This document shows positions 16,158 to 43,726 of a stretch of 64,000 bases of DNA, in pieces. The position numbers and the translations under genes were made by a program. This DNA comes from an uncultured bacterium (GTDB lineage: Bacteria > Patescibacteriota > Minisyncoccia > Phycocordibacterales > UBA6065). The notes under the pieces are model-generated. The model searched no databases and was not told the origin of the DNA. It was given only the letters and a program-made list of their open reading frames with translations. Within the stretch, counting starts at the first letter, position 1, and every line of letters starts with the position of its first letter. The DNA lies in NCBI GenBank assembly GCA_966243015.1, contig CBIMES010000001.1:143995-207994 (forward strand). Direction: 5' to 3'.

Positions 16158-17066
16158 CTAGATGTTCGATCCGTTGCCCCCATTTGTTCCGTTCGATGTG
16201 TTCGAGGCCGAGTTGCTGTACCAGACGCCGTTATACCAGTAGCCGTTCGAGGAACTGTTCGTTCCGGTGCTGCTGTTGCCTGTCATGCTGGATGCGCTTG
16301 TCGTTGGGTAGCTATACCACGCTCCGTTGTACCAGTACCCGCTGCTCGCGGTGGCTCCGTTGAACCCGTCGCTCATCGGGTCACCAGAGACAAAGCCGGT
16401 CACGCGTCGGGCCGTGGTGGTTGATGTGTCAGTGCTGTCCGTTCCCGTAACGCCTGTTGTCGTGGTGCTGTTCGAGGTACTGTACCAGACGCCGTTATAC
16501 CAGTAGCCGCCTTCCGTCGACGCGTTGCTTGTCGAGCTTGTCAGTCCGTAGGGGTAGGTGTACCAGATTCCGTTGTACCAGTATCCGTTTGACGTGCCTG
16601 TGTTCGGCGCGACGCCGGTGGGGTTCATTCTCTGCGTGATGGACTGGGCGAGGGAGTTCCTGGTGCCCACGTCGAGGATTCCCGTGACGGGCAGGCCTCG
16701 AGAGAGCTGATAGTGAATAAGTGCGTCCCTCGTTATCTCCCCGAAGTACCCTCGGGGTACGCTTGGGTCAAGGACAAGGTATCCGCCCTCGATGAGGAAT
16801 CCCTGGAGGTCGGCGACCGCCTGGCTCCGGGAACCGACCGTCAGGTCCCCGACGCCCGTGAGCCAGAAGCCGCCCTGTGGCGTGTATCCGGCCCATGTGG
16901 TCGCCGCGCTCGTCGTGCCGCTTCCGATTGTCGTTGAGTTGGTGGTGGTTGAGGTGAGGGTTCCGGCCGTCGACGTCTGAGCCTGCGCTGACGTGGCGGC
17001 AACGGTCAGGGCGACCGCCAGCGCGGCGACGCCCACCCTAACTGAAATTAATGTGCGATGTTTCAT
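16158..17066 (-). CDS. secreted peptidoglycan-binding (PG_binding_1) protein with four GYWYNGxWY repeats
   Basis: Signal peptide, Thr/Ser-rich linker and a PG_binding_1-like core (QAVADLQGFLIEGGYL...ITRDALIHYQLSRGLPVTGILD); then four GYWYNG[IVA]WY repeats separated by S/T-rich linkers. Confidence 0.6.
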   Translation of the reverse strand: MKHRTLISVRVGVAALAVALTVAATSAQAQTSTAGTLTSTTTNSTTIGSGTTSAATTWAGYTPQGGFWLTGVGDLTVGSRSQAVADLQGFLIEGGYLVLDPSVPRGYFGEITRDALIHYQLSRGLPVTGILDVGTRNSLAQSITQRMNPTGVAPNTGTSNGYWYNGIWYTYPYGLTSSTSNASTEGGYWYNGVWYSTSNSTTTTGVTGTDSTDTSTTTARRVTGFVSGDPMSDGFNGATASSGYWYNGAWYSYPTTSASSMTGNSSTGTNSSSNGYWYNGVWYSNSASNTSNGTNGGNGSNI

Positions 17067-17212: not shown

Positions 17213-18073
17213 CTAGATGCAGGCGCAGTAGTCGGTGTCTCCTCCCGAACAGGTGTCAACAGTGTTTGCGGGAATTTGGCACGTTATGTCATAAGGGACA
17301 GCAGCCTTTGTGCAGAAGTTAAATCCTGGCAGGCCACCGATGCCGCCGCCTCCGAACTGGGCGTATGCGCTAGGTATGAGGCTGATTTGAATCGTGCCAT
17401 TCGGAATTGACGCGGTTGAGACGCCGGTGCACGCGTTCGCGAACGATCCGTCCCCGCCCGCTATCCAGCAGCTTGAGGTTGCGGGGCCGTATATGCGGCA
17501 GAACTGGGCGGCGAAGCCCCCGTCCTCTCTGAACACGGCTTTTCCGGGGCCCTCTTCGGCCTCGATATAACTTCCCGTGCTCATGGTGTTCACGCACGAG
17601 GTATAGGGTGCAGGAACGATAGGGCAATAGCTCTTGGCGCTCGCCGCCATGGGCAGGGAGGTCGGGGTGACGAGCTCGGCGCCGAACGCCGCCGACTCGG
17701 CCGCCGCGTCCGCGTAGTACACGTACGAGTCGTCCTTGCTGTTGGGGATTGCCGAGATGTACCCTTCGTTTACGAGCTCCTGCATGCTTGCGTTGAAGGC
17801 CTGGGTGCCCTCGCGGGCGATTGAGTCACCGGTTCCTCCCGCGCAGTACGAGCCGCCGCAGTTGTAGTTCCTCGGCACCTTGCCGGTGGCCGTCTTCTTC
17901 ACAGATATCGCCGTCTCTATCTGGTGCACCTGGCTTTTCTTGCTCGCGTCGTCCGCCTTGGCCCTCGCTGACGCGGTTGAATACATGGCGACGCTCGAGA
18001 TGAGTGACACGATCGAGACTACGACGAGGAGCTCGATGAGGGTGAAGGCCCGATGCGCGGTGTTCGGATTCAT
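17213..18073 (-). CDS. type IV pilin-like protein with prepilin N-terminus and a Cys-rich C-terminal domain
   Basis: N-terminus [27 protein letters not shown] (class III signal, G/A-FTLIE); more than 12 Cys in the C-terminal half. Confidence 0.7.
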   Translation of the reverse strand: MNPNTAHRAFTLIELLVVVSIVSLISSVAMYSTASARAKADDASKKSQVHQIETAISVKKTATGKVPRNYNCGGSYCAGGTGDSIAREGTQAFNASMQELVNEGYISAIPNSKDDSYVYYADAAAESAAFGAELVTPTSLPMAASAKSYCPIVPAPYTSCVNTMSTGSYIEAEEGPGKAVFREDGGFAAQFCRIYGPATSSCWIAGGDGSFANACTGVSTASIPNGTIQISLIPSAYAQFGGGGIGGLPGFNFCTKAAVPYDITCQIPANTVDTCSGGDTDYCACI

Positions 18074-22250: not shown

Positions 22251-24131
22251 CTAGAGAATGCTCTCTGGATCAACGTTGACTGCGTAAGAAGGCGGGAGCG
22301 AACGTAGTCTCTCCAGAAGTTTTTCGTCAGGCCACTCTCCGCGCGAGAGCTTGATGAGGGCGTGCATGACGTACTCGCCCTTCACGGTCGCGATGAAGGC
22401 GGGGAAGACGTCGACGGTCCAGTCGGCCAGAATCTCCTTCAGCTTCTCCATTGAGTCGAGAACCGTCTCCTTCTTGCCGGTGTACGAGATCTTTATGAAG
22501 TTCGAGAACGGTGGGAACGAGACGGCGCGGCGAGCCTCGATCTCCTCGCGGTAGAAGTCTATGATATTGCCCTTCACGCCCAGTGCGAGCACGGGCTCCT
22601 CGGGTCGCCTCGTCTGGAGGAGGAAGTGCTTGCGAGCGAGCGAGCGCATCTTGAGGATGATCGAAAAAATCTTCTCGTTGATGCGGAAGTCGGGAATCGA
22701 AAAGAGGGCGTCGAGCGAGGCGACGGCGGTGTTGTCTATCTCACGGTCGAGGTATAGCAGGGCGAGCTCGGTGCCGACCATGATGCTGCCGGGCGAGTCA
22801 TAGAACCTCTCGGCGATCTCGACGGCCTTCTTGTGGGTCGGTGCGGACATCTTGTCGAGGACGATGATGTTTGCCTCGGGAATGGCGGCGGCCAAATCCT
22901 CGGCGATGCGCTCGGTGCCGATGCCGAGGGTGGTCAGACGCCAGCTGCCGCAGCCTCGGCAGACGGTGTGCGCGTCAGAGCGGAGACCACACTTGTTGCA
23001 GAGGAAGAACCTCCTGTCGTCCTTGCCGTGCAGGACGAGGGGCGCGGCGCAGCGCTTGCAGGTGAGCGTCGTCTCGCAGTCGGCGCAGATGGTCTGGGGC
23101 GCGAGACCCTTTCTGCCGGCGAAGACGAACATGAGGCCGCTCTCCTCGCGGTTCTTCTGGGCGAGGGCGATGAGGTCGTTTGAGAGGACCCTGATGGACT
23201 TTGCGCCCTTGTATATCTTCATGTCGACAAGGTGGTCGCGGGCGGTCGAGAGGGAACGCATGGCCGGCGGCGCGTACTCGACGAGCTCAGCCTCCTCGTG
23301 CCGCCAGAGCGTCTCCACGCGGACATACGAGTCGCCGAGGATGAGGTCCGCCCCCGTCTCCTTGGCGAGTTTCTCGGCGGCGAGGCGGACGTCGATGAAG
23401 GGCCTGGTCTGGCTTTTGTACGATCGGGAGTTCTCTCGTTCGACGATGATAAGGCCGACGTCGTGGCGGGGAATCGAGAGAAAGCCGCCGGTGGCGACAA
23501 TGATGATGGGGTGATCGTCCTCGAGGGCCTTCTTCCAGCGCTTGGCTATCTCACCCTTGGCGACGCCGCTGTGGAATATGTAGGTGTATGGCTCGATGCC
23601 TTTCTCGAAATACGAGCACGCCTTCTTGATGTCCTCGACGGTCGGCATGAGCATGAAGACGGACTCCTTGCGGGCGAAGCGCTCGCGGATGAGGCTCTTG
23701 TAGTGACCGTAGCGATCGTCATCCGCCTTCTGTAGGACAAACGACTCGCGTGACTTGGTTCGCTTGATGAGGGGCCTGGCCTCGGGGAGCGACTCGTATT
23801 CTGAGAGGACCGTCGCCGGCACGAGGTCAAAGAGCACGCTGCCGACGGACGAGGCATAGTGGCGGGCGATTTCCTCGGTTGCCTTGAAGAATTGGGTCGA
23901 CACGATGCTGCGGGCGTTAAGGTTCGACACCTTCCTCATCTCGAAGTTCGCCGACTTGATCTCGGCCTTTGACTCGGTGGCGGGCTGGCTGGCGAGAACG
24001 ATGGCACCTACGGTGCGCTTGCGGAGGGGCACGCGGATAATCGAGCCCGGAAGGGCTTCGCTTGGGCTCCAATATGAAAGCAGGTCAGCTCCGATTCCGC
24101 GGGCGATGGGTATGGCTTTAATCAGATACAC
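22251..24131 (-). CDS. priA: primosomal protein N' (replication restart helicase PriA)
   Basis: PriA N-terminal 3'-DNA-binding region, helicase core and Cys4 zinc ribbon (CADCETTLTCKRC...CNKCG...CRGCG). Confidence 0.85.
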   Translation of the reverse strand: MYLIKAIPIARGIGADLLSYWSPSEALPGSIIRVPLRKRTVGAIVLASQPATESKAEIKSANFEMRKVSNLNARSIVSTQFFKATEEIARHYASSVGSVLFDLVPATVLSEYESLPEARPLIKRTKSRESFVLQKADDDRYGHYKSLIRERFARKESVFMLMPTVEDIKKACSYFEKGIEPYTYIFHSGVAKGEIAKRWKKALEDDHPIIIVATGGFLSIPRHDVGLIIVERENSRSYKSQTRPFIDVRLAAEKLAKETGADLILGDSYVRVETLWRHEEAELVEYAPPAMRSLSTARDHLVDMKIYKGAKSIRVLSNDLIALAQKNREESGLMFVFAGRKGLAPQTICADCETTLTCKRCAAPLVLHGKDDRRFFLCNKCGLRSDAHTVCRGCGSWRLTTLGIGTERIAEDLAAAIPEANIIVLDKMSAPTHKKAVEIAERFYDSPGSIMVGTELALLYLDREIDNTAVASLDALFSIPDFRINEKIFSIILKMRSLARKHFLLQTRRPEEPVLALGVKGNIIDFYREEIEARRAVSFPPFSNFIKISYTGKKETVLDSMEKLKEILADWTVDVFPAFIATVKGEYVMHALIKLSRGEWPDEKLLERLRSLPPSYAVNVDPESIL

Positions 24132-24192: not shown

Positions 24193-25050
24193 CTAGGGGC
24201 GTGCGGCAATCGTGAGCCTCTCCAATCCTTTCGCGTAGATATTCCAGACTTCGGAAGCGACGAGTGTCTTTGCGTATACGCGAACCTCGTCTATGTGGCC
24301 CTGGAAATATTCGCCATCCGAGCAGGCACTTGAACCCGCCTCGGCTCCGATACAGAGAGGGTTGTTTACCGCGTAGTTCACAGGACCATTGGGCGTCGCA
24401 TTTTCCGCAACCTGCTTTCCGTCGAGATAAAGCCTGATTGTATCGCCGTCATAGGTTACGAGCGCGTGATGCCATGTGTTCGGCGATATGCTCGAGATTG
24501 GCGTTTTGGCGGCGTGCCAGGTTCCCCCTACGTTGAGGAGCCCGCACAGGCCGCCCGTTCCGCCGCAAGCCACGGCCTCGTTGATGGCCAGGCTGTATCC
24601 GCCGGTTTGGGACTTGGAGATGATGCGCCTTGGACCGGTGATTGACGAAGCGTTGAACCAGGCCCCGAAGGACACTGCGGACGTTGGGGCGAGTTCGGCG
24701 GAGTGACCGATTGTGACGCGGCCGGTCGATCCATTAAGCTGAAGAGATTGCCCCGTGCCTGAATAGGTATTTGCCGAGGTGACGCTTGCTCCCGTTGAGA
24801 GTGTCCCGTTGTTACCGCCAGCTCCGTTGATCGCAGTCGTTCCCGAATCCGCGTCAAAGTCCCACATGCCGGCGACCTGGTCTCCCATGGTGCGAAACGT
24901 CTGGGCGGAGAACTGCCTCGCCGCGCCGAGGCGCGCTTTCTCGCGCGCCGAGTTGAGGCTCGCGAGGACGATGCTCGAGAGCAGGCCGATGATGGCGATG
25001 ACCACGAGGAGCTCGATGAGGGTGAAGCCCCTGTTCCGATGAGATGTCAT
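24193..25050 (-). CDS. type IV pilin-like protein with a LamG/concanavalin-A-like lectin domain
   Basis: N-terminus [26 protein letters not shown]; LamG-type signatures ([42 protein letters not shown]). Confidence 0.7.
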
Positions 25051-25121
25051 GTTTCTACCATAACAAAATTAATCGGTCGGCGTAACCCTTTGGGCGTATA
25101 CTTTTCCACAGAAGCAAGAGG

Positions 25122-25170
25122 CTGCGCGGGCGGGCCGAAAGGCCCGCCCGCGCAGTCTTCTCTTTTTATG
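25122..25170. terminator. Rho-independent terminator (33-nt perfect hairpin)
   Basis: CTGCGCGGGCGGGCC-gaaa-GGCCCGCCCGCGCAG followed by TCTTCTCTTTTT; between murA and the pilin gene. Confidence 0.65.
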
Positions 25171-25181
25171 CGATGCTTTTC

Positions 25182-26750
25182 TTAGAGATCCCTGAACACC
25201 TCGATCTTCGCGCCGATGGCATTGAGACGATTGGCGAGGTCCTCGTATCCGCGGTTGATGTTGTAGACGTTGCGGAGCACCGACGTTCCCTCGGCCGCGA
25301 GCATGCCGAGCATTATAATCACGGACGGGCGAAGGGCGGGAGGGCAGACAATTTCGGTTGCCTTGAGCTTCGTCGGGCCTTTCACATAGAAGCGGTGCGG
25401 ATCGGCGAGGATGGTCTCGGCACGCATCTTGTCGAGTTCCTTGTAATAGATCGCTCGCTCTTCGTACACCCAGTCGTGGATGAAGGTCTGACCCTCCGCC
25501 TGCGTGCCGATGATGGCGAAGAAGGGGAGGTTGTCCATGTTGATGCCCGGGTATGGTTGAGCGTGAATCTTCTCCTCGAGGGCGACGAGCTTCGACGCGA
25601 AGGTTTGGATGTCGACGAGGTTGGTCTTGCTGTTGTCGGCCTTGTATCGCTTCACGATTTTGTACTTGAACCCCATCTTCTCGAGCTTGAGGAGCTCGAG
25701 CTCGAGGAAGTCGATGGGGCAGCGCTCGATGGTGATTGATGACTTGGTGACGATGGCCGCGGCGAGGAGTGACATTGCCTCGATGGGGTCCTCCGAGAGG
25801 AAATACTCAATGTCCTTCTTCACGCCGTTCTTGCTGCCGTCGATGCCGTGTACGGTCATGGTCGAGGTGCCGATGCCGTCGATCTTCGCGCCGAGGAGCT
25901 CGAGGTAGAAGCAGACGTCCTGGACCTGGTAGTTCGCAGAGGCGAACTTCACGGTCGTGGTGCCGGGGATGAGCGCCGCCGCCATGAGCACGGCCTCGGT
26001 CACGGTGTCTCCCGCCTCGTACATGACGACTTCGCGGTCCTTCTTGAGGCCGTCGTGCGAGACGTGGTAGTACTCTGAGCTGGTCTCGATCTTCACGCCG
26101 AGTTTCTCGAGGGCGTAGACGTACGGCTTGATGGTTCGGGAGCCGAGTCGGCAGCCTGACGCCTGAGGGAGGTCAAACTCCTTCATTCTGTGAATGAGCG
26201 AGCCGACCATCATGATGACGGAACGGGTCTTCGCCGCGGAGTCGTAGGCGATGTCCTTCATGGCGAATTTCTCGGGCGGGGTGATGTGCAGATCTGGGCC
26301 CTTCCATTCGATCTTCACGCCGATGGACTCGAGCACCTCGGCGATGCGGTTTACCTCCTCAATCTTGGGAGTGTTCTTGATGACGGTCGTGCCGCGGTTC
26401 ATGAGCGATGCGCACATGAGGCCGACGGCGCCGTTCTTCGACGTGCGCACCTTGATCGAGCCCGAGAGCTGATGTCCTCCCTCGATGCGGAAGTTGACCG
26501 TGCCACCCTTCGCGAGGGAGACGATCTCCTGGCCGAGCGCCGCCGAGAGCTTGGCGAGGGTCTCGGTCGACAGGTTCTGCTCGCCCTTCTCGATGCGGGC
26601 GATGACGGACTGGGTGGTGCCGATCTTCTCGCCGAGCTCGGTCTGGGTCATGCGCCTGTCCTCGCGGAGGCGGGCGATCATGAGGCCGATAGAGGCGAGG
26701 GCTTCGGCAGGCTTGCTCTCCTTCGCGGTTTTTTTGGTTTTGGTGGGCAT
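25182..26750 (-). CDS. murA: UDP-N-acetylglucosamine 1-carboxyvinyltransferase with an N-terminal HTH (XRE-type) domain
   Basis: ~70-aa N-terminal XRE-like HTH (RMTQTELGEKIGTTQSVIARIEKGEQNLS). A full MurA body follows, with FRIEGGHQLSGSIKV..., the conserved active-site region and the C-terminal NINRGYEDLANRLNAIGAKIE. Start placed at MPTKTKK. Confidence 0.8.
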   Translation of the reverse strand: MPTKTKKTAKESKPAEALASIGLMIARLREDRRMTQTELGEKIGTTQSVIARIEKGEQNLSTETLAKLSAALGQEIVSLAKGGTVNFRIEGGHQLSGSIKVRTSKNGAVGLMCASLMNRGTTVIKNTPKIEEVNRIAEVLESIGVKIEWKGPDLHITPPEKFAMKDIAYDSAAKTRSVIMMVGSLIHRMKEFDLPQASGCRLGSRTIKPYVYALEKLGVKIETSSEYYHVSHDGLKKDREVVMYEAGDTVTEAVLMAAALIPGTTTVKFASANYQVQDVCFYLELLGAKIDGIGTSTMTVHGIDGSKNGVKKDIEYFLSEDPIEAMSLLAAAIVTKSSITIERCPIDFLELELLKLEKMGFKYKIVKRYKADNSKTNLVDIQTFASKLVALEEKIHAQPYPGINMDNLPFFAIIGTQAEGQTFIHDWVYEERAIYYKELDKMRAETILADPHRFYVKGPTKLKATEIVCPPALRPSVIIMLGMLAAEGTSVLRNVYNINRGYEDLANRLNAIGAKIEVFRDL

Positions 26751-27035
26751 GGTTCGGTGCTTATGGGTAAGTGAGAAACAGTATAGCATATATGCTATAC
26801 ATTTAAGACGGTGCTGTGGATAAAAAAGCACGCAGGGGAGGCGTGCTGAGGGGGGTCTATCTTCTTGTGAGGGAGGCGACGATCCAGGCTGCGAGCAGGA
26901 GGGCCAGAAGGCCAGAGACGACGGACGATACGGTGAGGCCCTGCCATTTCCCGGTGTCGCACCCGTGGCTTTCGCTGGTCGATGGGGAGGGGTCGGCGTT
27001 CATTTCATCACCATAGTGCCCCCGTCGTGTCCAGA

Positions 27036-27403: not shown

Positions 27404-28417
27404 ATGGCCATATTTACGAAGAAACTCGGCATTGACCTCGGCACCGCGAACACCCTCGTGTTCATTCCCGGCAAGGGCATCGTCCTCAACGAGCCTTCGG
27501 TGGTCGCTGTGTCCGAACAGGACAACAAGATTCTTGCCGTCGGTGTCGAGGCGAAGAACATGATTGGCCGAACGCCGGAGTCGATCATCGCGTACCGTCC
27601 GATGAAGGACGGCGTCATCGCCGACTATCGCGTGACCGAGGCCATGCTCCGGTACTTTATCGACAAGGCTCTCGGCAAGTGGAACATCTGGAAGCCAGAA
27701 GTCCTCGTGTCCGTTCCCGCGGGCATCACCTCGACCGAGCGACGAGCCGTCGTCGAAGCTGCCGTGAAGGCGGGCGCCAAGAATGCCTATGTGGTCAAGG
27801 AGCCGATCCTCGCCGCCATCGGCGCGGGCATCCCGATTCAGGAGGCGCGCGGCCACATGATCGTCGACATCGGCGGGGGTACGACTGACGTCGCGGTCAT
27901 CTCGCTCGGTGGCATCGTGTCCTCGACTTCGGTCAAGTGCGCCGGCAACAGGATTGACGCCGCCATCGCCGACTACATCAAGAAGACCTTCAACCTCGCC
28001 ATCGGAGACAAGACCGCCGAGAACATCAAGATCCAGATCGGTTCGGCCGTTCCTCTCGAGGAGGAGCTTTCCATGGTCATCAAGGGACGAGACTTCGTCT
28101 CGGGACTGCCGCGCTCGACCGAGCTTAAGTCGAACGAGGTGGTCAAGGCGATCACCCGCGAGCTTCGCGACATGGTGAAGGCGATCAAGGACGTGCTCCA
28201 GGAGACTCCTCCCGAGCTCGCCGCCGACATCATCGACAGCGGCATCATCATGACCGGGGGATCGTCCCAGCTCCGCAACCTTCCCGAGCTCGTCTTCCGT
28301 CGCACCGGCGTGAAGGCCGTCCTCGCCGAGGACCCTCTGTACTGCGTTGCCAAGGGAACCGGCATCGCGCTCGAGCATCTCGAGACGTACAAGAGGACGA
28401 TTATTTCGAAGAGATAA
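27404..28417 (+). CDS. mreB: rod shape-determining actin homologue MreB (paralogue 1)
   Basis: LGIDLGTANTLVF phosphate-1 motif, IVDIGGGTTDVAVIS phosphate-2 and the adenosine motif; 337 aa. Confidence 0.9.
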   Translation: MAIFTKKLGIDLGTANTLVFIPGKGIVLNEPSVVAVSEQDNKILAVGVEAKNMIGRTPESIIAYRPMKDGVIADYRVTEAMLRYFIDKALGKWNIWKPEVLVSVPAGITSTERRAVVEAAVKAGAKNAYVVKEPILAAIGAGIPIQEARGHMIVDIGGGTTDVAVISLGGIVSSTSVKCAGNRIDAAIADYIKKTFNLAIGDKTAENIKIQIGSAVPLEEELSMVIKGRDFVSGLPRSTELKSNEVVKAITRELRDMVKAIKDVLQETPPELAADIIDSGIIMTGGSSQLRNLPELVFRRTGVKAVLAEDPLYCVAKGTGIALEHLETYKRTIISKR

Positions 28418-29551: not shown

Positions 29552-32500
29552 ATGAAATTTAGGGTAGTGTCCTTTGTGCTTGTAGGAGCGTTACTCACAC
29601 TTGCGCCGCTTTTTTCTCATGCGCAGGAAAGGGGAGGCGCCTCTCTCTTCTTCTGCAAGGTGTTTTCGATTTTCACCAAAGCCGACTGTTCTCCGTCGGC
29701 TGATTCTGCCACCGCTGAAATTACCCAAGCCCCGTTGCTGCCGTCTCCGTCGGGCGAGGGGTCTAAGCCTTCCTCTGTCGTAACCAATGTTGCGGATTCG
29801 GATTCCCCGGCACGCGAGGTTTCGTCTGGCGTCGGCCCTTATCCCTCGCTGAGCCGTTCGGACGTTCAATCGATGATCGATTCCTCGATCGAGCGATTGC
29901 CCGCACCCACAACCGTGTCTCCCTCGGAGCCCTCGGTCCAGACGGTTGTCTATCGATCGTCCTCGGCCCAGGGCGACTCTATCGTGAGCGCCTCCGCCCG
30001 CATGGTTTCCGACCTTAGGGCCGACATCCAGGAAGGGAGGGTCTCTGTGCCTCTGTCAGCCGTGTCTGGTCAGTCTTCCGTGCTCTCGGGTGACGCTGAG
30101 CTCGCGAACGCTACCAGCACCACGTTCTTCTCGACCGTCGGGCGCTTTGCGACGGGTGTTGTGGACACCCTGTCCTCGGCGGTTGCGACTATAGCGAGTC
30201 TGTTCGTCGAGAATCTCACTGCCACCAACGCAACGTCTACCAATTCCGTTGTCACGGGAGGCCTGTCTGCCGGTTCCCTCAGCCTCGGCACCGCTCTCGC
30301 GGTGACAAGCGGAGGAACGGGTGCGTCTGACGCGTCTTCCGCGAGACTTAACCTTGGCTTGGCCTATGCCACGTCCTCGGACATATCGGCAACGCTTTTC
30401 AATAACATTGCCACATGGGGAGACAGTCTGACCGCAGGTGCTGGCGGCACACCCTACCCGACGCAGCTTGCCAGTCTTACGGGTGCTACCGTCTATAACG
30501 GGGGCGTCGGTGGCGAGACGAGCACTCAGATAAAGGCCCGAATGCTCGCCGCGACCGACAAACACGCCCATCCGACGATAATTTGGGCAGGAAGGAATAA
30601 TTACAGCTCTCCCGAAACCGTCAAAGCTGACATCGCCGAGATGGTTGCGGCTCTCGGGCACAATAATTATCTGATCATTGGCGTGATCAATGGCAATTAC
30701 CCGAGTGAGTATTCTGGGGGAGCGGGACACACGCTTATAACAAATCTTAACAGCGACCTGTCCGAAACGTATGGCTCCCGTTTCATCGACATGCGTCAGT
30801 ATCTTGTCTCGCTGTACGACTCGGGGATTCCGCAGGACGTTACTGACCATGACAATGACATCGTGCCGAGCTCTCTTCGTTCGGATAGTATCCATTTGAC
30901 CACGGCGGGTTATTTGGCGGTTGCGCAGAGAATATATCAGGATATCAGTGTCCTTAGGTCGGGAGCGACTGGATCGGTTGTAAATCCTCAGACTCTTCAG
31001 TATGCGTTTTCAAACCCGTTTCCCATCGGCGCAACTACTCGCGCCGGGGGTTACTTCAGCCAGGTGGGCGTGGGAACATCGACGCCCGCGCGAGCTCTTT
31101 CCGTTGTGGGCGGCGACGTGGAGATAGATCAATCAAGATTCTATTACGCAAAGGACGCCAGCGGTAACAGTGTGAGGGTCGCCGGTGTCTCGGGAAGCAA
31201 TCTGTTCTTGGGAGGAAGCTATGTCAGCAACCTGTATCTCGGCACGGGGTTCACGGGCCAGTCTCAGGCTCTTACGATTGCGAACGGTGGTTCCGTGGGA
31301 GTCGGAACGACCACTCCTTCTGCGAGGCTTTCCGTGACGGGCGCTGCTGGCAGCGGCGATATTTTCGCTGTTGCCTCGTCAACCAACGCTCGGCTTCTGA
31401 CGGTGACAAGCGCTGGTGCGCTCGGTGTTGGAACGAGTTCGCCCTCCGCACTCCTCTCTGTCTCTGGGTCTTCCGCGTTTGCGGGTCTCGCGACGTTTTC
31501 TTCCAATGTTTTCATGACGGGAGGAAGTCTGTACCTGCAGTCCTCTGGAGCTGGGTTCTATCTTCCCGGAAACGGAGGAATCGCGGGAAATAACGGGGCA
31601 ATCAATCTTACTGCTGCTGGCACTAATCAGAACATCACCCTCACGCCGAGCGGCACGGGAGCTGTTGGAATCGGCACCACCACGCCGTCAGCAAGGCTCG
31701 CCGTAACGGGAACCGCGGGAACGAGTGACATATTCGCGCTCGCGTCCTCGACGAACGCGAGGGTCCTCACGGTCAATAGCGCTGGAAACAGCTTCTTCGG
31801 TGGCAACATCTCGGCGACCGGAACTATTGCCTCAAACATGGGTTCTGGGAACGGACAGGCGCTCACGGTTATCACAGACGGAAGTACGAGGTATGCGAAC
31901 CTTGCCTTCAACGAGGTTGCGTCCAACAAGGCTTTGATTTCATGGATTGGTTCTGGCGCTGGGCTGGGCGCTCGAAACAACACCCTCGAGCTTGCGGCCG
32001 AGAATTCGGGTAGCGACATAGCGTTCAGGACTGGCGGGGCAACTAAAATGATCCTTACTGACGGTGGCCTGCTAGGCATAGGAACCACGACGCCGTCGAC
32101 CGCACTCGATGTGGTGGGTGTGGTGAACGCGTCTGGAGGTTACACCTATAACACGTCTAGCAGCGGATCGGGACTTACCGTGAACACCACGGCGAATACG
32201 ACATACAACAACATATCCTTCACCGAGAACTCGTCGCTTCGATCGCTCATATCGTGGATCGGCTCGAACGCGGGCCTCGGGACGAGGAACAACACCCTTG
32301 AGCTTTCCGCGGAGGCGTCTGGAGGTGATATAGCGCTCCGCGCGGGAAACGCGACGAGGCTGTTCGTGGACGCTGGTGGAAACGTTGGCGTGGGCACGCT
32401 CACCCCAGGGGCGAAGCTCGACGTGGGTGGATCGGTCAAGGCGACGTCATACGCGCGAGGTGTAGCGACCACGACGTCGCAGCTCGTGTTTGACGGAGAC

Positions 32501-32719
32501 TCTATGACCTTCGGATACGGCCTCACCACCCCATACCCGAACCTGGTAACCACGACCCATACGTTCAGCAGGTACAACACCGCTGTCTCTGGCCGAACCG
32601 TTCTCGACATGATACTCAACGCGACGACCAGCGTTGACGCAAGACTCTCCGACAGGGCCCGCGAGAACATCGTGGTCGTATGGGGGGGGGAATCAACAGT
32701 ATGGCGCTCGAGGGAATAA
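29552..32719 (+). CDS. giant secreted SGNH-esterase / tail-fibre-repeat protein, N-terminal 1,055 codons (frame interrupted in a G9 tract)
   Basis: Signal peptide; Ser/Pro-rich linker; SGNH domain 1 (block I NIATWGDSLTAGAGG, block V DSIHLT); at least five V/LG[IV]GTTTPSARLxVTG repeats; start of SGNH domain 2 (FDGDSMTFGYG). Terminates 29 nt after a G9 run. Confidence 0.8.
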   Translation: MKFRVVSFVLVGALLTLAPLFSHAQERGGASLFFCKVFSIFTKADCSPSADSATAEITQAPLLPSPSGEGSKPSSVVTNVADSDSPAREVSSGVGPYPSLSRSDVQSMIDSSIERLPAPTTVSPSEPSVQTVVYRSSSAQGDSIVSASARMVSDLRADIQEGRVSVPLSAVSGQSSVLSGDAELANATSTTFFSTVGRFATGVVDTLSSAVATIASLFVENLTATNATSTNSVVTGGLSAGSLSLGTALAVTSGGTGASDASSARLNLGLAYATSSDISATLFNNIATWGDSLTAGAGGTPYPTQLASLTGATVYNGGVGGETSTQIKARMLAATDKHAHPTIIWAGRNNYSSPETVKADIAEMVAALGHNNYLIIGVINGNYPSEYSGGAGHTLITNLNSDLSETYGSRFIDMRQYLVSLYDSGIPQDVTDHDNDIVPSSLRSDSIHLTTAGYLAVAQRIYQDISVLRSGATGSVVNPQTLQYAFSNPFPIGATTRAGGYFSQVGVGTSTPARALSVVGGDVEIDQSRFYYAKDASGNSVRVAGVSGSNLFLGGSYVSNLYLGTGFTGQSQALTIANGGSVGVGTTTPSARLSVTGAAGSGDIFAVASSTNARLLTVTSAGALGVGTSSPSALLSVSGSSAFAGLATFSSNVFMTGGSLYLQSSGAGFYLPGNGGIAGNNGAINLTAAGTNQNITLTPSGTGAVGIGTTTPSARLAVTGTAGTSDIFALASSTNARVLTVNSAGNSFFGGNISATGTIASNMGSGNGQALTVITDGSTRYANLAFNEVASNKALISWIGSGAGLGARNNTLELAAENSGSDIAFRTGGATKMILTDGGLLGIGTTTPSTALDVVGVVNASGGYTYNTSSSGSGLTVNTTANTTYNNISFTENSSLRSLISWIGSNAGLGTRNNTLELSAEASGGDIALRAGNATRLFVDAGGNVGVGTLTPGAKLDVGGSVKATSYARGVATTTSQLVFDGDSMTFGYGLTTPYPNLVTTTHTFSRYNTAVSGRTVLDMILNATTSVDARLSDRARENIVVVWGGESTVWRSRE

Positions 32720-34098
32720 CGCCGGTCGCAACGTATAACGAGCTGGTGGCGTATGCTCGAGAGCGAAGGGCGGCGGGATTCAAGGTGATCATAGGCACGA
32801 TGGTCTCTCGAACTGGCTCAAACGGCAACGGAACGTTCGACTCGCAGAAGAACACCTACAACGCGCTCATCAGGGCGAATTGGGCAAATTTCGCCGACGG
32901 CATAGCCGACCTCGCTGGCGATGCACGCCTCGGGGCAGACGGTGCGTACTCTAACTTGACGTATTTCCAGGCGGACGGAATTCATATCAATGACACGGGT
33001 GCGGCAATAGTGGCGGGAATCGTATCTACGGCGATTGATCGCCTGACGGAGGGGAACGTGAAGGACCTGAACGACCTGTACGTCACTGGGAAGATGGGTA
33101 TCGGCACGACGTCTCTATCTGAAAAGCTCTCTGTCGCTGGTAACATAATTGTTACCAACGGTTCACGAATATACGGCTTTGATTCGTCTGGTAATAAGGC
33201 TGTCATAGCTCAGATTGCCGCCGGGCTGAACGATCTCTATCTCGGCGGTAGCTACGTTGGCAACCTGTATCTTGGTACGGGTGCGGGGACTCAAAGGGTG
33301 ACTGTCACCAACGGCGGAAACGTTGGTATCGGCACCACCACCCCTTCCGCCCAGCTCACCACTTCGGGCACCGTCCGCTTCGCCTCGCTTGGCTCTGCGG
33401 GCGCGAACCTCATCACGGACTCGCTCGGCAACGTCACTGTTTCCTCTGACGAGAGGCTTAAGGACGTGCAGGGGGAATTCGCGAGGGGCCTCAGCGACAT
33501 TTCCAAGATTAAGCCGATCACGTACAAGTGGAACGCCGTGTCGGGCATGGAGACCTCCGGTCTCTATACGGGATTCTCTGCTCAGAACGTGCAGTCATCC
33601 ATACCCGAGGCAGTCGCGACAGACTCGCGAGGGTACCTTACCCTTTCCGACAGGCCGATTCTGGCGGCGGTCGTCAACGCCCTCAAGGAGCTTTCGGCAA
33701 AGGTTGACGGCATCATGTCCTCGAATTTCACCTATGTGAACGAGGCGTCGATCGGCGTCCTCAACGTCGGCAAGCTTAACATCCAGGGCGACATCTGCGT
33801 CGATAACGTGTGTATCACGAAAGAGCAGTTCAAGAGCATCTTCACGCAGAACGGCTCGACGGTGTACATGCCTCAGCCTGTGCAGGATACGTCTTCAGAG
33901 GCAGAGGGCCTCGTTCCCACCGAGACCGCCTCGAGCACCTCGGACGTTCCGGATACGTCGAGCGCGTCTTCGACGTCCGAGGAGGCGCCTTCCTCGGTCG
34001 ACGCCGAGGTCGCGTCTTCGACGCCTCCTGCGGAGGAGGTCGTTTCAGGGGATTCTGAGCCCCAGGAATCCGAGACCCCGGGCGCGCCCGTTGAATAA
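32680..34098 (+). CDS. giant secreted protein, C-terminal 472 codons (continuation in the -1 frame)
   Basis: Rest of SGNH domain 2 (GGINS block III-like, DGIHINDTG block V); more GIGTT repeats. Then the phage tail-spike intramolecular-chaperone (Peptidase_S74-like) domain (SSDERLKDVQGEF...ITYKWN...GFSAQNVQSSIPEAV...ILAAVVNALKELSAKVDG) and an S/T/E-rich tail. Confidence 0.8.
   Translation: MGGGINSMALEGITPVATYNELVAYARERRAAGFKVIIGTMVSRTGSNGNGTFDSQKNTYNALIRANWANFADGIADLAGDARLGADGAYSNLTYFQADGIHINDTGAAIVAGIVSTAIDRLTEGNVKDLNDLYVTGKMGIGTTSLSEKLSVAGNIIVTNGSRIYGFDSSGNKAVIAQIAAGLNDLYLGGSYVGNLYLGTGAGTQRVTVTNGGNVGIGTTTPSAQLTTSGTVRFASLGSAGANLITDSLGNVTVSSDERLKDVQGEFARGLSDISKIKPITYKWNAVSGMETSGLYTGFSAQNVQSSIPEAVATDSRGYLTLSDRPILAAVVNALKELSAKVDGIMSSNFTYVNEASIGVLNVGKLNIQGDICVDNVCITKEQFKSIFTQNGSTVYMPQPVQDTSSEAEGLVPTETASSTSDVPDTSSASSTSEEAPSSVDAEVASSTPPAEEVVSGDSEPQESETPGAPVE
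32682..32690 (+). repeat. G9 homopolymeric tract at the frame break of the giant gene
   Basis: tatGGGGGGGGGaatc; G7 or G10 would restore a single ORF reading VVVWGG(G)INSMALEG. Confidence 0.9.
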
Positions 34099-34107
34099 GA
34101 AGGTCTC

Positions 34108-34689
34108 ATGAATACTCAGAAAGGATTCACCCTCATCGAGCTCCTCGTCGTCATTGCCATCATCGCGCTTCTCTCGAGCGTGGTTTTATCGTCTCTTAAT
34201 ACGGCTCGCGCTAAATCCCGCGACGCGTTGCGCATGTCCCAGATGAATCAAGTGATGAGCGCCCTCGAGATGTATTACGCCAAATACGGCTCATACCCCT
34301 ATGGAAACAGTGGCTCGCTTAATACCGAGGGCGCGAGGAATAATTCGTGCAATAATGCGGGGTCGAGCCTGGGTGAGCCGATGGGCGAGTGGGATAACGT
34401 GATGCAGCTCCTCGTGAACGAGGGGTTCTTGGGCGGCATTCCGCGCGATCCGATCAATACGGGCTATGCGAGCACAGGGAACAGCAGGTGCTACAAGTAT
34501 TCCTCCTACACGGCTGATGACGGCCTGTACAGGCGCTGCAGCACAAACGCGGTCGGCGACAGGGATATCCCTATACGCAACTACGGCTACGTCCTTATGT
34601 TCTCCTCCGAGGCAACAACCTTCAAATACCCGCTTTCTGGTTGGCCAGTCAACATCTATACGTATTGCGTTCTTGGCCCTGCAAAATAG
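34108..34689 (+). CDS. type IV pilin-like protein
   Basis: N-terminus [24 protein letters not shown]; 193 aa; 10 nt downstream of the giant gene. Confidence 0.7.
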   Translation: MNTQKGFTLIELLVVIAIIALLSSVVLSSLNTARAKSRDALRMSQMNQVMSALEMYYAKYGSYPYGNSGSLNTEGARNNSCNNAGSSLGEPMGEWDNVMQLLVNEGFLGGIPRDPINTGYASTGNSRCYKYSSYTADDGLYRRCSTNAVGDRDIPIRNYGYVLMFSSEATTFKYPLSGWPVNIYTYCVLGPAK

Positions 34690-39563: not shown

Positions 39564-40109
39564 TTAGTAACTTGACGATGATCCGGTTCCTCCGGCGTCT
39601 GCCTCGCAGAGTACTCCGTTGGTTCCCGTGTTCGTCAGCGTACTTCCTCCGGGGCAGCTGGTCGCGTTTGCTATGGTGAAATAGATGGTCGCGCGGGTGC
39701 ACCTTCCCGAGGATACCGTGTTGCAGAAATAAAGCGGTCCGGCGTACGACTGGCCCGAGATGGTTACGGTCGGGTTGGTCGACGCCCTGCGTACGTAAGT
39801 TGTCGTAAGCGAGGAGAGGTCGCCCGCGGTGCTTGGGGCAAGGGTTGTCCCCGCAAAGGAGCAGTTGTTGTTGCCGAGGCAGTGGTATGACTGGTTCCCT
39901 GGGTAAGGGAAGTTGCCCGAATCGGTGGTGAACATCTGCACCGCGGTCTGGAGGGACCTTTTCTCGGCGAGCACTTTCGCGTTTGCCGCCCTGGCGCGCG
40001 CCGTGTTCACGCTCGACAGTACTACGCTCGAGAGGAGGGAGATGATCGAGATGACGACGAGGAGCTCGATGAGGGTGAAGCCTCTGGCCCTGCTTCCGTG
40101 TGTGTTCAT
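39564..40109 (-). CDS. type IV pilin-like protein
   Basis: N-terminus [28 protein letters not shown]; two Cys pairs in the C-terminal domain. Confidence 0.7.
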   Translation of the reverse strand: MNTHGSRARGFTLIELLVVISIISLLSSVVLSSVNTARARAANAKVLAEKRSLQTAVQMFTTDSGNFPYPGNQSYHCLGNNNCSFAGTTLAPSTAGDLSSLTTTYVRRASTNPTVTISGQSYAGPLYFCNTVSSGRCTRATIYFTIANATSCPGGSTLTNTGTNGVLCEADAGGTGSSSSY

Positions 40110-41877: not shown

Positions 41878-42942
41878 ATGATCAAGAAACTCACAGACCG
41901 CCTCTACAACGCCTTCTCCCACGACATCGGCATCGACCTCGGTACCGCCAACACGCTTGTCTACGTGAAGGGGCAGGGCATCGTCATCAACGAGCCGTCG
42001 GTCGTCGCCGTGAACCAGAAGACGGGTCGCGTGGTTGCCGTCGGCTCTCAGGCAAAGGACATGCTCGGCAGGACACCCGCCCACATCGCCGCCGTACGAC
42101 CGCTCGTCGAGGGCGTGATCTCGGATTTCGAGATCGCCGAGGAGATGCTCGTGTACCTCCTCAACAAGTCGCAGAAGGAGACCAAGAAGTTCTTCGGGCC
42201 GCGCGTCATCGTCGGCATTCCCTCGGGCGTGACGAACGTCGAGGCGCGCGCCGTCCGTGACGCGACCAAGAACGCCGGCGCGCGCGAGGTTCACGTCGTC
42301 GAGCAGCCGATGGCCGCTGCAATCGGCATCAAGCTCCCTATCCATGACCCGGCGGGAAACATGGTCATCGACATCGGCGGAGGCACCACCGACATCGCCG
42401 TCATCTCGCTCGGCGGCGTGGTGCGCTCGAAGTCGCTCAAGATCGCCGGTGACCGCCTCAACAACGACATCATTTCGTACATCAGGAACGAGTTCAAGAT
42501 CCTCATCGGCGAGAAGACCGCCGAGGAGATCAAAATCGCCATCGGCGTGGTCGTGCCCGGCCAGGTTCCTCACGAGGCGCCGATCAGGGGCCGTGACCTT
42601 GTCACGGGCCTTCCGCGCGAGGTGGTCCTCACTGACTCTGACATCCGCGAGGCTGTCAGCCAGTCGATCGAGAACCTCGTCGAATCCGTCAGGGAGGTGC
42701 TCGAGACCATGCCTCCCGAGATTCTCGCCGACGTCATGCATCGCGGCATCTGGCTCGTGGGCGGAGGCGCCCTGATCCGCGGCCTCGACCACCTCATCGA
42801 GGAGAGCGTGAAGATTCCCGTTCACATCGCCGATGATCCTCTCACCGCCGTCGCGCGAGGCGCGGGCATCATTCTCGAGGATGTGGAGAGGTTCGCCGAT
42901 GTTCTTATACAAAACGAAGATGACCTACCTAAGGCGCAGTAA
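41878..42942 (+). CDS. mreB: rod shape-determining protein MreB (paralogue 2, in the mreBCD-pbp2 operon)
   Basis: IGIDLGTANTLVYV and VIDIGGGTTDIAVIS motifs. Confidence 0.9.
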   Translation: MIKKLTDRLYNAFSHDIGIDLGTANTLVYVKGQGIVINEPSVVAVNQKTGRVVAVGSQAKDMLGRTPAHIAAVRPLVEGVISDFEIAEEMLVYLLNKSQKETKKFFGPRVIVGIPSGVTNVEARAVRDATKNAGAREVHVVEQPMAAAIGIKLPIHDPAGNMVIDIGGGTTDIAVISLGGVVRSKSLKIAGDRLNNDIISYIRNEFKILIGEKTAEEIKIAIGVVVPGQVPHEAPIRGRDLVTGLPREVVLTDSDIREAVSQSIENLVESVREVLETMPPEILADVMHRGIWLVGGGALIRGLDHLIEESVKIPVHIADDPLTAVARGAGIILEDVERFADVLIQNEDDLPKAQ

Positions 42943-43726
42943 CGTACAGATCAAGAGGAACCGCAGGCTTACCATGCTCGCGGGTGGCGCCGTCGCGCTC
43001 GTCTTTGCCGTGCACGTTGCCTTCCCGAACCTTTACGCGGGACTTCTCTCGCCGGTGACCTCGACCATATGGAAATCGGAGTCGACGACTCTCAAGGGCG
43101 TGAGCCGCCTCGCGTCCCTCGTGCGCTCCAAATACTCTCTCGTCGTCGAGAACGAGGGTCTTCGCCGTGAGATAGCCTCGCGCGACGCGAGCGCGCTTCT
43201 GCTCGACACGGTTAAGAAGGAGAACGGGGAGCTCAAGACGCTCCTGGGCCGCGAGCACGCGGGTCGGGACGTGCTCGGCCTCGTGCTCTCTCGTCCGCCG
43301 CTCACGTTCTACGACACGCTCATCGTTGACGTCGGCACGTCCGACGGCATTGCCATCGGCGACAAGGTATACGCCCAGGGCGAGGTGCTCATCGGCGACG
43401 TGTCCGAGGTCTTCGCCAAAACCGCCCGCGTCAGTCTCTTCTCGACCCCAGGCAGGGCGTTGCAGGTGGTCATGGGATCGTCCACGGTCCAGGCCCAGGC
43501 GACGGGCAGGGGAGGCGGCAATTTCGAGGCCCGCCTCCCGGTCGACGTGAAGGTCGCCGAGGGCGACGTCATCACCTTCCCGCACATTCGCTCGCACGTC
43601 TTCGGCGTCGTCGAGAAGATTATCGTCGACTCGACCGACTCACTTCAGACCATCCTCTTCAAGGCACCCGTCAACATGCACGAGCTGCGCTTCGTCGAGG
43701 TGGAGACGGACTCGAGCGTCCGATAG
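42899..43726 (+). CDS. mreC: rod shape-determining protein MreC
   Basis: N-terminal TM, coiled coil (LVVENEGLRREIAS) and C-terminal beta domain (GDKVYAQGEVLIGDV); GGAGAGG lies 8 nt upstream of ATG 42899; alternative start at 42920. Confidence 0.7.
   Translation: MFLYKTKMTYLRRSNVQIKRNRRLTMLAGGAVALVFAVHVAFPNLYAGLLSPVTSTIWKSESTTLKGVSRLASLVRSKYSLVVENEGLRREIASRDASALLLDTVKKENGELKTLLGREHAGRDVLGLVLSRPPLTFYDTLIVDVGTSDGIAIGDKVYAQGEVLIGDVSEVFAKTARVSLFSTPGRALQVVMGSSTVQAQATGRGGGNFEARLPVDVKVAEGDVITFPHIRSHVFGVVEKIIVDSTDSLQTILFKAPVNMHELRFVEVETDSSVR

Follow-up and report, generated by a model that had tools for sequence, protein, structure and literature searches.

The 64-kb stretch of DNA analysed here (the window) carries a complete gene for a modular prepilin with a LamG domain, hereafter the LamG pilin. 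The gene lies where the first-pass annotation had placed it, and on the minus strand, which that annotation had left unstated (Table 1). The open reading frame runs from ATG to stop and encodes 285 amino acids, of which 277 (approximately 28.6 kDa) remain in the mature form. Its ATG is the sole possible start, since an in-frame TAA lies six codons upstream with no alternative start in between. The three protein motifs quoted earlier for this frame were all recovered, at residues 7-26, 193-211 and 251-263. The G+C content of the gene (0.60) is similar to that of its surroundings. An identical protein is already present in NCBI and ENA, on eight public contigs of up to 493,814 bp, and it occurs in several independent assemblies with its neighbours unchanged.

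The LamG pilin gene is flanked upstream by a murA-like gene fused to an HTH_3 domain and on its other side by priA, while def, fmt and mreB are found close by. Within the 131-nt gap that separates it from the murA-like gene, a G+C-rich hairpin with a 19-bp stem was detected, which is probably the terminator of the murA-like gene. With such a terminator, the LamG pilin gene would probably form a transcription unit of its own. Elsewhere in the window, a poly-G tract at 32682..32690 is a candidate site of phase variation. A promoter scan of the LamG pilin strand returned nothing convincing. By direct reading of the sequence, TGTTATGGT, whose end lies 6 nt ahead of the ATG, might be an extended -10 element; this assignment is speculative, and the scan did not call the element because no -35 match accompanies it. 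Further, no clear Shine-Dalgarno sequence was seen when the region ahead of the ATG was inspected and, on that basis, we speculate that the mRNA may be leaderless or may carry only a very short leader.

Table 1. Features of the LamG pilin gene, its neighbours and the other pilin genes of the window (positions are those of the window).
Feature	Position	Strand	Evidence or remark
LamG modular prepilin gene, complete	24193..25050	-	ORF, Pfam N_methyl and Laminin_G_3
Leader peptide MTSHRNRG, residues 1-8, ending in Gly-1	25027..25050	-	Sequence and 68-sequence alignment
Pilin alpha1 helix, residues 9-56; hydrophobic part followed by amphipathic half	24883..25026	-	AlphaFold2 model, alignment
One LamG_3/ConA-like beta-sandwich unit and terminal helix, residues 59-283, ~23 kDa	24202..24876	-	Pfam PF13385, AlphaFold2 model, Foldseek, profile
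Possible extended -10 element TGTTATGGT	25057..25065	-	Direct sequence reading; speculative
G+C-rich hairpin, 19-bp stem, in the gap between the murA-like and LamG pilin genes	25118..25159		Terminator-like site called on both strands
murA-like gene fused to HTH_3 domain, upstream neighbour	25182..26831	-	
priA, other neighbour	22251..24131	-	
286-aa pilin, Ala at -1, Cys-rich C-terminal region	17213..18073	-	N_methyl E 4.7e-6; 13/20 N-terminal identity to the LamG pilin
Conventional 193-aa pilin, leader MNTQKG	34108..34689	+	N_methyl E 1.8e-9, weak T2SSG match
181-aa pilin, leader MNTHGSRARG	39564..40109	-	N_methyl E 4.5e-8; 17/20 N-terminal identity to the LamG pilin

The N-terminus of the LamG pilin was recognized as a class III signal by both Pfam N_methyl (37.3 bits for residues 4-29, E 1.7e-9, cutoff 21.2) and NCBIfam TIGR02532 (36 bits, cutoff 16.3). 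The leader is short and positively charged. Cleavage by prepilin peptidase is predicted between G8 and F9, and would leave a mature start with Phe+1, Glu+5, Gly+14 and a hydrophobic run of ~20 residues. In a family alignment of the LamG pilin and 67 homologues (68 sequences), F9, T10, L11 and E13, among them F+1 and E+5, do not vary (68/68), and Gly fills position -1 in 46 sequences, Ala in 15 and Ser in 7. An invariant F+1/E+5 with Gly, Ala or Ser at -1 is the pattern expected of prepilin-peptidase substrates. The alpha1 stem as a whole is the best-conserved part of the alignment, with a column entropy of 0.2-1.2 bits across the 68 sequences, and is predicted to be the filament-core assembly interface. 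When genome contigs were searched with the pattern [GAS]FTLIELLV, the matches listed were mostly unrelated pilins from Planctomycetota and Verrucomicrobiota. Pseudopilins of the type II secretion system (GspG/GspH) and the competence proteins ComGC-GF were considered and rejected as identities, as they matched only the N-terminal ~45 residues and scored below their cutoffs (GspH, 41 vs. 80; GspG, 31.5 vs. 88.85).

The remainder of the protein is accounted for by a single domain. Pfam Laminin_G_3 (PF13385) matched residues 106-268 with an E-value of 7.9e-27 and 94.7 bits (cutoff 27.6). This match spans positions 1-150 of the 151 in the profile and is overlapped by weaker ones to Laminin_G_2, 3keto-disac_hyd and Laminin_G_1. 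An AlphaFold2 model computed from the 68-sequence alignment was obtained with a mean pLDDT of 91.6 and a pTM of 0.82. It consists of one helix at residues 11-56 (pLDDT 77-92), approximately 14 strands within residues 59-259 (pLDDT mostly >90) and a C-terminal helix at residues 265-283. The classical pilin head, a four- to five-stranded antiparallel sheet packed on the C-terminal half of alpha1, is absent from the model, in which the LamG unit follows directly on alpha1 and takes the place of the usual head. This replacement appears to be the norm in the family rather than a peculiarity of this gene. The most variable segments of the sandwich, at residues 141-190 and 221-250 of the 68-sequence alignment, also carry insertions and deletions. 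Four cysteines (162, 169, 233 and 243), common only to the closest relatives, lie in the sandwich and, judging from the sequence, could form disulfides.

The boundaries of the unit were derived from its relatives. When 1.84 billion cluster representatives were searched exhaustively with phmmer, there were 86,727 matches at E <= 0.001, 19,970 at E <= 1e-10 and 1,668 at E <= 1e-30. The top of this list was dominated by giant proteins of 1,000-7,000 amino acids with 5-30 LamG repeats, and the two of them that were inspected both begin with an ordinary membrane anchor, not with a pilin motif. Their repeats start with 'GYWxxD..SG' and end with 'IDEVRIYNRALSxxE..LY', and are of the same length as the LamG pilin unit. 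Likewise, profile positions 58-260 of the family align to residues 4-203 of the isolated Domain4 of AbnA, the arabinanase of Geobacillus stearothermophilus. From these two comparisons, residues 58-283 span precisely one LamG unit, and the Pfam envelope (106-268) is therefore too short to represent the true domain.

A comparison of the model with the PDB by Foldseek yielded 422 matches at E <= 0.001, led by ConA-like jelly rolls. The best were receptor-binding fragments of clostridial neurotoxins, in which the HCN half has this fold, with E-values from 5.6e-11 to ~1e-9, a TM-score of ~0.5-0.59 and 12-16% identity. This likeness is one of fold only, as the LamG pilin has no HCC beta-trefoil, translocation or protease domain. 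When the family profile was compared with PDB sequences, the leading matches were the LamG domain of the S-layer protein 4qvs (5e-25) and AbnA Domain4 (5hon/5ho0; 1.4e-23, profile positions 58-261), followed by neurexin, tetanus and botulinum HCN, pentraxins, pappalysins, a sialidase lectin domain and laminin. Pilins were matched in this search through their N-terminus only, and the two leading relatives are domains of an S-layer protein and of an enzyme rather than pilins. AbnA Domain4 is itself a ConA-like sandwich that holds arabinopentaose in a concave, Trp-rich cleft and binds arabinan with a Kd of ~8-11 uM (PMC9110388). The LamG pilin as a single sequence did not reach AbnA at E <= 1, so the binding residues of AbnA are not transferable to it. 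Taken together, the two domains proposed in the first-pass annotation have stood. The prepilin N-terminus is canonical by its class III signal, by two profiles above their cutoffs and by F+1/E+5 in all 68 sequences. As regards the LamG_3-type jelly roll (residues ~58-283), Pfam, the confident model, Foldseek and the PDB-sequence profile search agree, and the last two provided the LamG/ConA-like fold match that had been suggested as a check.

The ConA-like superfamily includes glucanases, and the weak Pfam match to 3keto-disac_hyd (26.3 bits, just below the cutoff of 26.8) might be taken to indicate that the pilus delivers an enzyme, either a glucanase or a protein resembling a 3-keto-disaccharide hydrolase. 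That match covers only part of the domain (residues 151-235), where it is overlaid by the far stronger one to LamG_3; we rejected it as a sub-threshold shadow of the latter. In addition, a GH16-type ExDxxE motif was absent when the sequence was inspected for it, and the closest solved relatives are binding modules. We thus regard an enzymatic role as very improbable.

A modular pilin of this composition is not without precedent. Modular pilins are widespread, and the combination of N_methyl (IPR012902) with PF13385, for which carbohydrate binding has been predicted, ranks among their 15 most frequent architectures, several of the representative proteins depicted for these 15 being from CPR bacteria (Raynaud et al. 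2021, PMC8179133). The LamG pilin is a modular pilin as defined in that study and has exactly the domain order N_methyl + PF13385, with the LamG unit placed directly after alpha1 and no small pilin module between the two. In the literature on such pilins, we found no experimentally characterised member of this architecture.

Two known systems come close. Streptococcus sanguinis PilC is a glycan-binding pilin that has been modelled as a low-abundance adhesin at the pilus tip. Like the LamG pilin, it has a class III signal and a short pilin part, to which a ConA-like lectin/glucanase superfamily module is joined (Shahin et al. 2023, PMC9934059). The two proteins differ in several respects. PilC is a 52.8-kDa protein with an additional Ig-like module, whereas the 28.6-kDa LamG pilin has a single LamG_3-type unit and no Ig module. 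The lectin module of PilC was superposed on galectin-7, while the jelly roll of the LamG pilin belongs to a different family. Finally, PilC is encoded in a pil locus and stabilised by PilA, in contrast to the LamG pilin, whose gene is located away from pil genes. PilC was not among the listed Foldseek or sequence-profile matches of the LamG pilin, which is thus not of the PilC type and may, by analogy, have a comparable function. The second system is that of the Saccharibacteria strain TM7x, which has lectin-like minor pilins and whose binding to its host was lowered by added monosaccharides (PMC11623550). Its PilX1, a minor pilin of CPR type IV pili, resembles the LamG pilin in bearing a lectin-like jelly roll and has been proposed to bind host glycans. 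PilX1 retains a lollipop pilin domain followed by a C-terminal beta-jelly-roll that NCBI CD-Search does not detect, and it is encoded in a type IV pilus locus (PMC11623550); in the LamG pilin, by contrast, the match to PF13385 is clear, the head is replaced and the gene is an orphan. A third candidate, TafC (NF052521), belongs to the haloarchaeal Tat-fimbria (PMC11821415) and was rejected. Its profile scored 49.1 bits vs. 410 and matched the LamG part alone (residues 57-274 against profile positions 146-362 of 373), and the N-terminus of the LamG pilin, being a class III signal and not a Tat signal, further rules it out.

Our preferred reading is that the LamG pilin is a binding module displayed on type IV pili and used for attachment, to which we assign a probability of about 60%. 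Were it displayed in this way, its ligand would more probably than otherwise be a glycan, and the subunit would most likely be of low abundance and probably located at the pilus tip. The nature of the ligand is a matter on which the relatives of the sandwich point in two directions. A pilus-borne adhesin whose LamG module binds a protein or another non-carbohydrate partner, a reading that overlaps with the preferred one, agrees with the presence of neurexin, laminin, pentraxin, pappalysin and neurotoxin HCN among the relatives by sequence or fold. Many domains of these types bind proteins, as LamG domains also do. To our knowledge, neither neurexin nor HCN is primarily a sugar binder, and HCN, the top fold match, is neither the glycan-binding part of the neurotoxins nor a known lectin. 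Moreover, no conserved sugar-binding residues were identified in the LamG pilin family, the conserved positions of the alignment looking structural. The word 'lectin', as applied to the LamG pilin, therefore describes its fold. Against a non-carbohydrate ligand, AbnA Domain4, which among solved sequence relatives of defined ligand is the nearest, has a polysaccharide as its ligand (PMC9110388), the ligands of S. sanguinis PilC are glycans (PMC9934059), and it was monosaccharides that reduced host binding in Saccharibacteria (PMC11623550). On balance, we consider a non-carbohydrate ligand a real but minority prospect.

The LamG pilin belongs to a large family. In a word-indexed search, 1,497 homologues passed the limit of E <= 1e-5 and, among those listed, nearly all were 250-300 amino acids long with N_methyl and Laminin_G_3. 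More than 1,400 relatives, mostly from Parcubacteria, have the architecture of the LamG pilin. The closest named homologue among the matches listed was a 'LamG domain-containing protein [Candidatus Taylorbacteria bacterium]' with 53% identity, which assigns the bacterium that carries the LamG pilin to the Parcubacteria group of Patescibacteria. Other full-length relatives listed came from Kaiserbacteria, Paceibacterota, Saccharibacteria and Parcubacteria. Homologues were annotated either as 'LamG domain-containing protein' or as 'prepilin-type N-terminal cleavage/methylation domain-containing protein', and many of them carry a precomputed match to PF07953 (Toxin_R_bind_N).

The genomic arrangement of these relatives varies. 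LamG pilins are solitary among housekeeping genes at three loci (L012-L014) and otherwise occur in pilin-only clusters, with tandem pairs at two loci (L010 and L011). At a locus of Ca. Taylorbacteria (L009), five LamG pilins and three short pilins are found within ~8.5 kb, interleaved with rnhB, rpmF, nusB and rnc. Paralogues at the same locus are 33-44% (L009), 41% (L010) and 55% (L011) identical to each other, and the stem is kept. The strong divergence of paralogues on a conserved stem in these relatives suggests a repertoire of binding specificities.

Within the window, a six-frame motif search located four pilin N-termini, all of which were confirmed by Pfam N_methyl, in agreement with the four pilin genes reported previously. 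Over the first 20 mature residues, the other three are identical to the LamG pilin at 18 (the 193-aa pilin), 17 (181 aa) and 13 (286 aa) positions. The accompanying statement that the four have unrelated C-terminal domains is correct for the LamG pilin compared to the other three, and incorrect among those three, which are alike up to residue ~85-110 with 38-48% identity. No Pfam domain was found in the C-terminal region of the 286-aa pilin. The alpha1 helices of the LamG pilin and of the 193-aa pilin, identical at 25 of the first 30 mature residues as well as at 18 of the first 20, are consistent with co-assembly of these two proteins, and we consider the 193-aa pilin the window's best candidate for a filament-forming partner.

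The machinery for pilus assembly was also sought. Pfam searches of 31 window proteins, a six-frame scan for the PilB Walker A/B and PilD GxGDxK motifs, and an examination of edge proteins ~10 kb past both ends found no PilB, PilC, PilD, PilM/N/O or PilT in the 64-kb window or within ~10 kb beyond either end. The only match to PilM_2 was rejected, as it is a tail match that falls below threshold and belongs to a genuine MreB. PilB, PilT, PilC, PilM/N/O and PilD are widely encoded in CPR genomes, which have no PilQ (PMC6744442). Genes for prepilin peptidase and for the assembly ATPase/platform were present at four CPR loci (L019, L021, L025 and L056). Two of these (L019 and L021) are canonical pil operons with the order pilM-N-O-pilB-pilT-pilC-short pilin-pilD-minor pilins, and neither contains a LamG pilin. 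The pilins that adjoin pilB, pilC and pilD in CPR operons are ~140-190 amino acids long. The full-length relatives of the LamG pilin at the loci examined likewise sit outside pil operons.

The orphan position of the LamG pilin gene, with no machinery in the window or its ~10-kb flanks, counts against display on a pilus. The model points the same way, as it has no classical pilin beta-sheet, which minor pilins use for contacts in the tip complex. A pilus is, besides, not needed to display such a unit, since the same unit is borne on ordinary N-terminal membrane anchors by the giant multi-LamG proteins. These observations fit a protein that is pilin-like and not part of long pili, in which the class III signal would serve for export and anchoring or for a short pseudopilus, and the surface-exposed LamG unit for substrate capture or adhesion. 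Archaeal sugar-binding proteins with class III signals (the 'bindosome') offer an analogy for surface display of this kind. On the other hand, alpha1, including E+5, is invariant and almost the same as in the conventional pilins of the window. Conservation of this degree exceeds the need of a simple anchor and would be expected for a filament-core interface. LamG pilin genes also cluster with short pilins in relatives. We therefore rate display independent of long pili as unlikely, though as an alternative that deserves consideration next to display of the module on type IV pili.

If the LamG pilin does enter a filament, that filament might be a separate pilus of unusual thickness in which it is the major subunit and every subunit bears a LamG domain. 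The full pilin assembly helix in the stem and the several gene copies in relatives are compatible with this arrangement. A 23-kDa sandwich on a bare alpha1 is, however, far larger than the pilins of CPR operons, the window holds the conventional 193-aa pilin, and known modular pilins are minor subunits (PMC8179133, PMC9934059). A thick pilus of this type thus appears improbable, and a minor, pilus-displayed binding module remains the preferred reading.

From the observed signal, stem, fold, conservation and paralogy, we infer the following scheme for such a module. The prepilin would insert into the membrane, where prepilin peptidase (PilD) would cut after Gly8 and methylate Phe9. The alpha1 helix would then take its place in the core of a filament whose main component is a short major pilin. 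In view of the bulk of its 23-kDa LamG module, the LamG subunit would be incorporated in few copies, most likely at the tip. There, it would present its ligand-binding face, most probably to a glycan on the surface of a host cell, a partner cell or a polymer, and extension and retraction of the pilus would convert binding into attachment. For each of these steps, the published work on S. sanguinis PilC, modular pilins, TM7x and the pilus genes of CPR gives support by analogy.

CPR/Patescibacteria mostly live attached to other microbes, and type IV pili are among the few surface systems that are enriched and conserved in them. As an individual finding, the gene described here is incremental, since its architecture is published, common and already annotated and this copy fits the pattern of the family. 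For its protein, the structural model is of high confidence and the domain is cleanly delimited (residues 57-285). The wider interest lies at the level of the family, with its divergent repertoires of paralogues on a constant stem, encoded outside pil operons. Tentatively, and by a conjecture that we hold as possible rather than probable, the 'headless' pilins of Parcubacteria-type CPR, each made of alpha1 and one LamG unit and diverged into paralogues outside pil operons (up to five per locus, 33-44% identical), could constitute an exchangeable repertoire of adhesins that is served by one pilus machine and sets the hosts or polymers to which the cells attach. LamG pilins are plausible specificity determinants of host choice in CPR bacteria.

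In the Ca. Taylorbacteria assembly GCA_016215405.1 (contig JACRJQ010000002.1), the genes of five LamG pilins lay together with those of three short pilins within approximately 8.5 kb (locus L009). The genes for RNase HII, L32, NusB and RNase III were interspersed among them, and the LamG paralogues shared a mutual identity of only 33–44%. The single LamG unit of the LamG pilin was also found in 5–30 copies in giant proteins of 1,000–7,000 aa, with identical start and end motifs. The N-termini of P0138 (1397 aa) and P0183 (1172 aa), the two of these multi-LamG proteins whose sequences were inspected, consisted of a plain membrane anchor and not of a pilin signal.

Upstream of the LamG pilin gene, no clear Shine-Dalgarno sequence was found at the start codon, and a TGnTATGGT motif ended 6 nt before it; together, these sequence features hint that the LamG pilin mRNA may be leaderless or carry a very short leader. 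Beyond a hairpin, the gene immediately upstream encodes a protein in which an XRE-type HTH_3 DNA-binding domain (residues 52–101) is joined with a complete EPSP_synthase/MurA-like enolpyruvyl transferase domain (residues 117–535), an unusual combination for a cell-wall enzyme. This fusion was kept in other assemblies, where its product was called as 522 aa. Elsewhere in the window, the gene of a 286-aa pilin, whose Cys-rich C-terminal region (about 180 aa) had no Pfam match, adjoined that of a secreted peptidoglycan-binding protein.

A large surface-protein gene, directly followed by the gene of a conventional 193-aa pilin, was broken into two overlapping ORFs exactly at a run of nine G. Its product comprises a GDSL/SGNH esterase, long Gly/Ser/Thr-rich repeats, a second GDSL domain and a Peptidase_S74 tail-fibre chaperone domain. 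When this organism was assembled independently (locus L001, 2314..2351), the tract contained eight G and the gene was split there too (1061 + 465 aa). For it to read in frame, 10 or 7 G would be required. The split stems from an assembly error in the homopolymer or else from slipped-strand phase variation.

Coordinates of the features described, in the window unless a locus is named
Feature	Position	Strand	Remark
Secreted protein with PG_binding_1 domain	16158..17066	-	
286-aa pilin	17213..18073	-	Ala at -1
TGnTATGGT motif	25057..25065		
Perfect 19-bp G+C-rich hairpin	25118..25159		terminator-like call, both strands
HTH_3–EPSP_synthase/MurA-like fusion	25182..26831	-	
Two MreB paralogues, MreC, PBP2-type transpeptidase	27404..28417, 41878..42942, 42833..43726, 44009..45709	all +	
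Surface protein, first part	29552..32719	+	1055 aa
Surface protein, second part	32680..34098	+	472 aa
Poly-G tract	32682..32690		
Polysaccharide biosynthesis cluster	~59.7–64.0 kb; L007 1301..13845		continues past window end
Pilin cluster (Ca. Taylorbacteria)	L009 3135..11685		

Together with a dcw-type cluster (mraZ, rsmH, ftsI and a mur ligase; names partly from reading translations) that begins at ~49.0 kb, the MreB, MreC and PBP2 genes equip this CPR bacterium, whose genome is small, with a complete toolkit for rod shape and division. At the window end, the polysaccharide cluster encodes GT2, GT4 and GT11 glycosyltransferases, Methyltransf_21 proteins, a Polysacc_synt flippase and epimerases/dehydratases, and could possibly supply the organism's own surface glycans.
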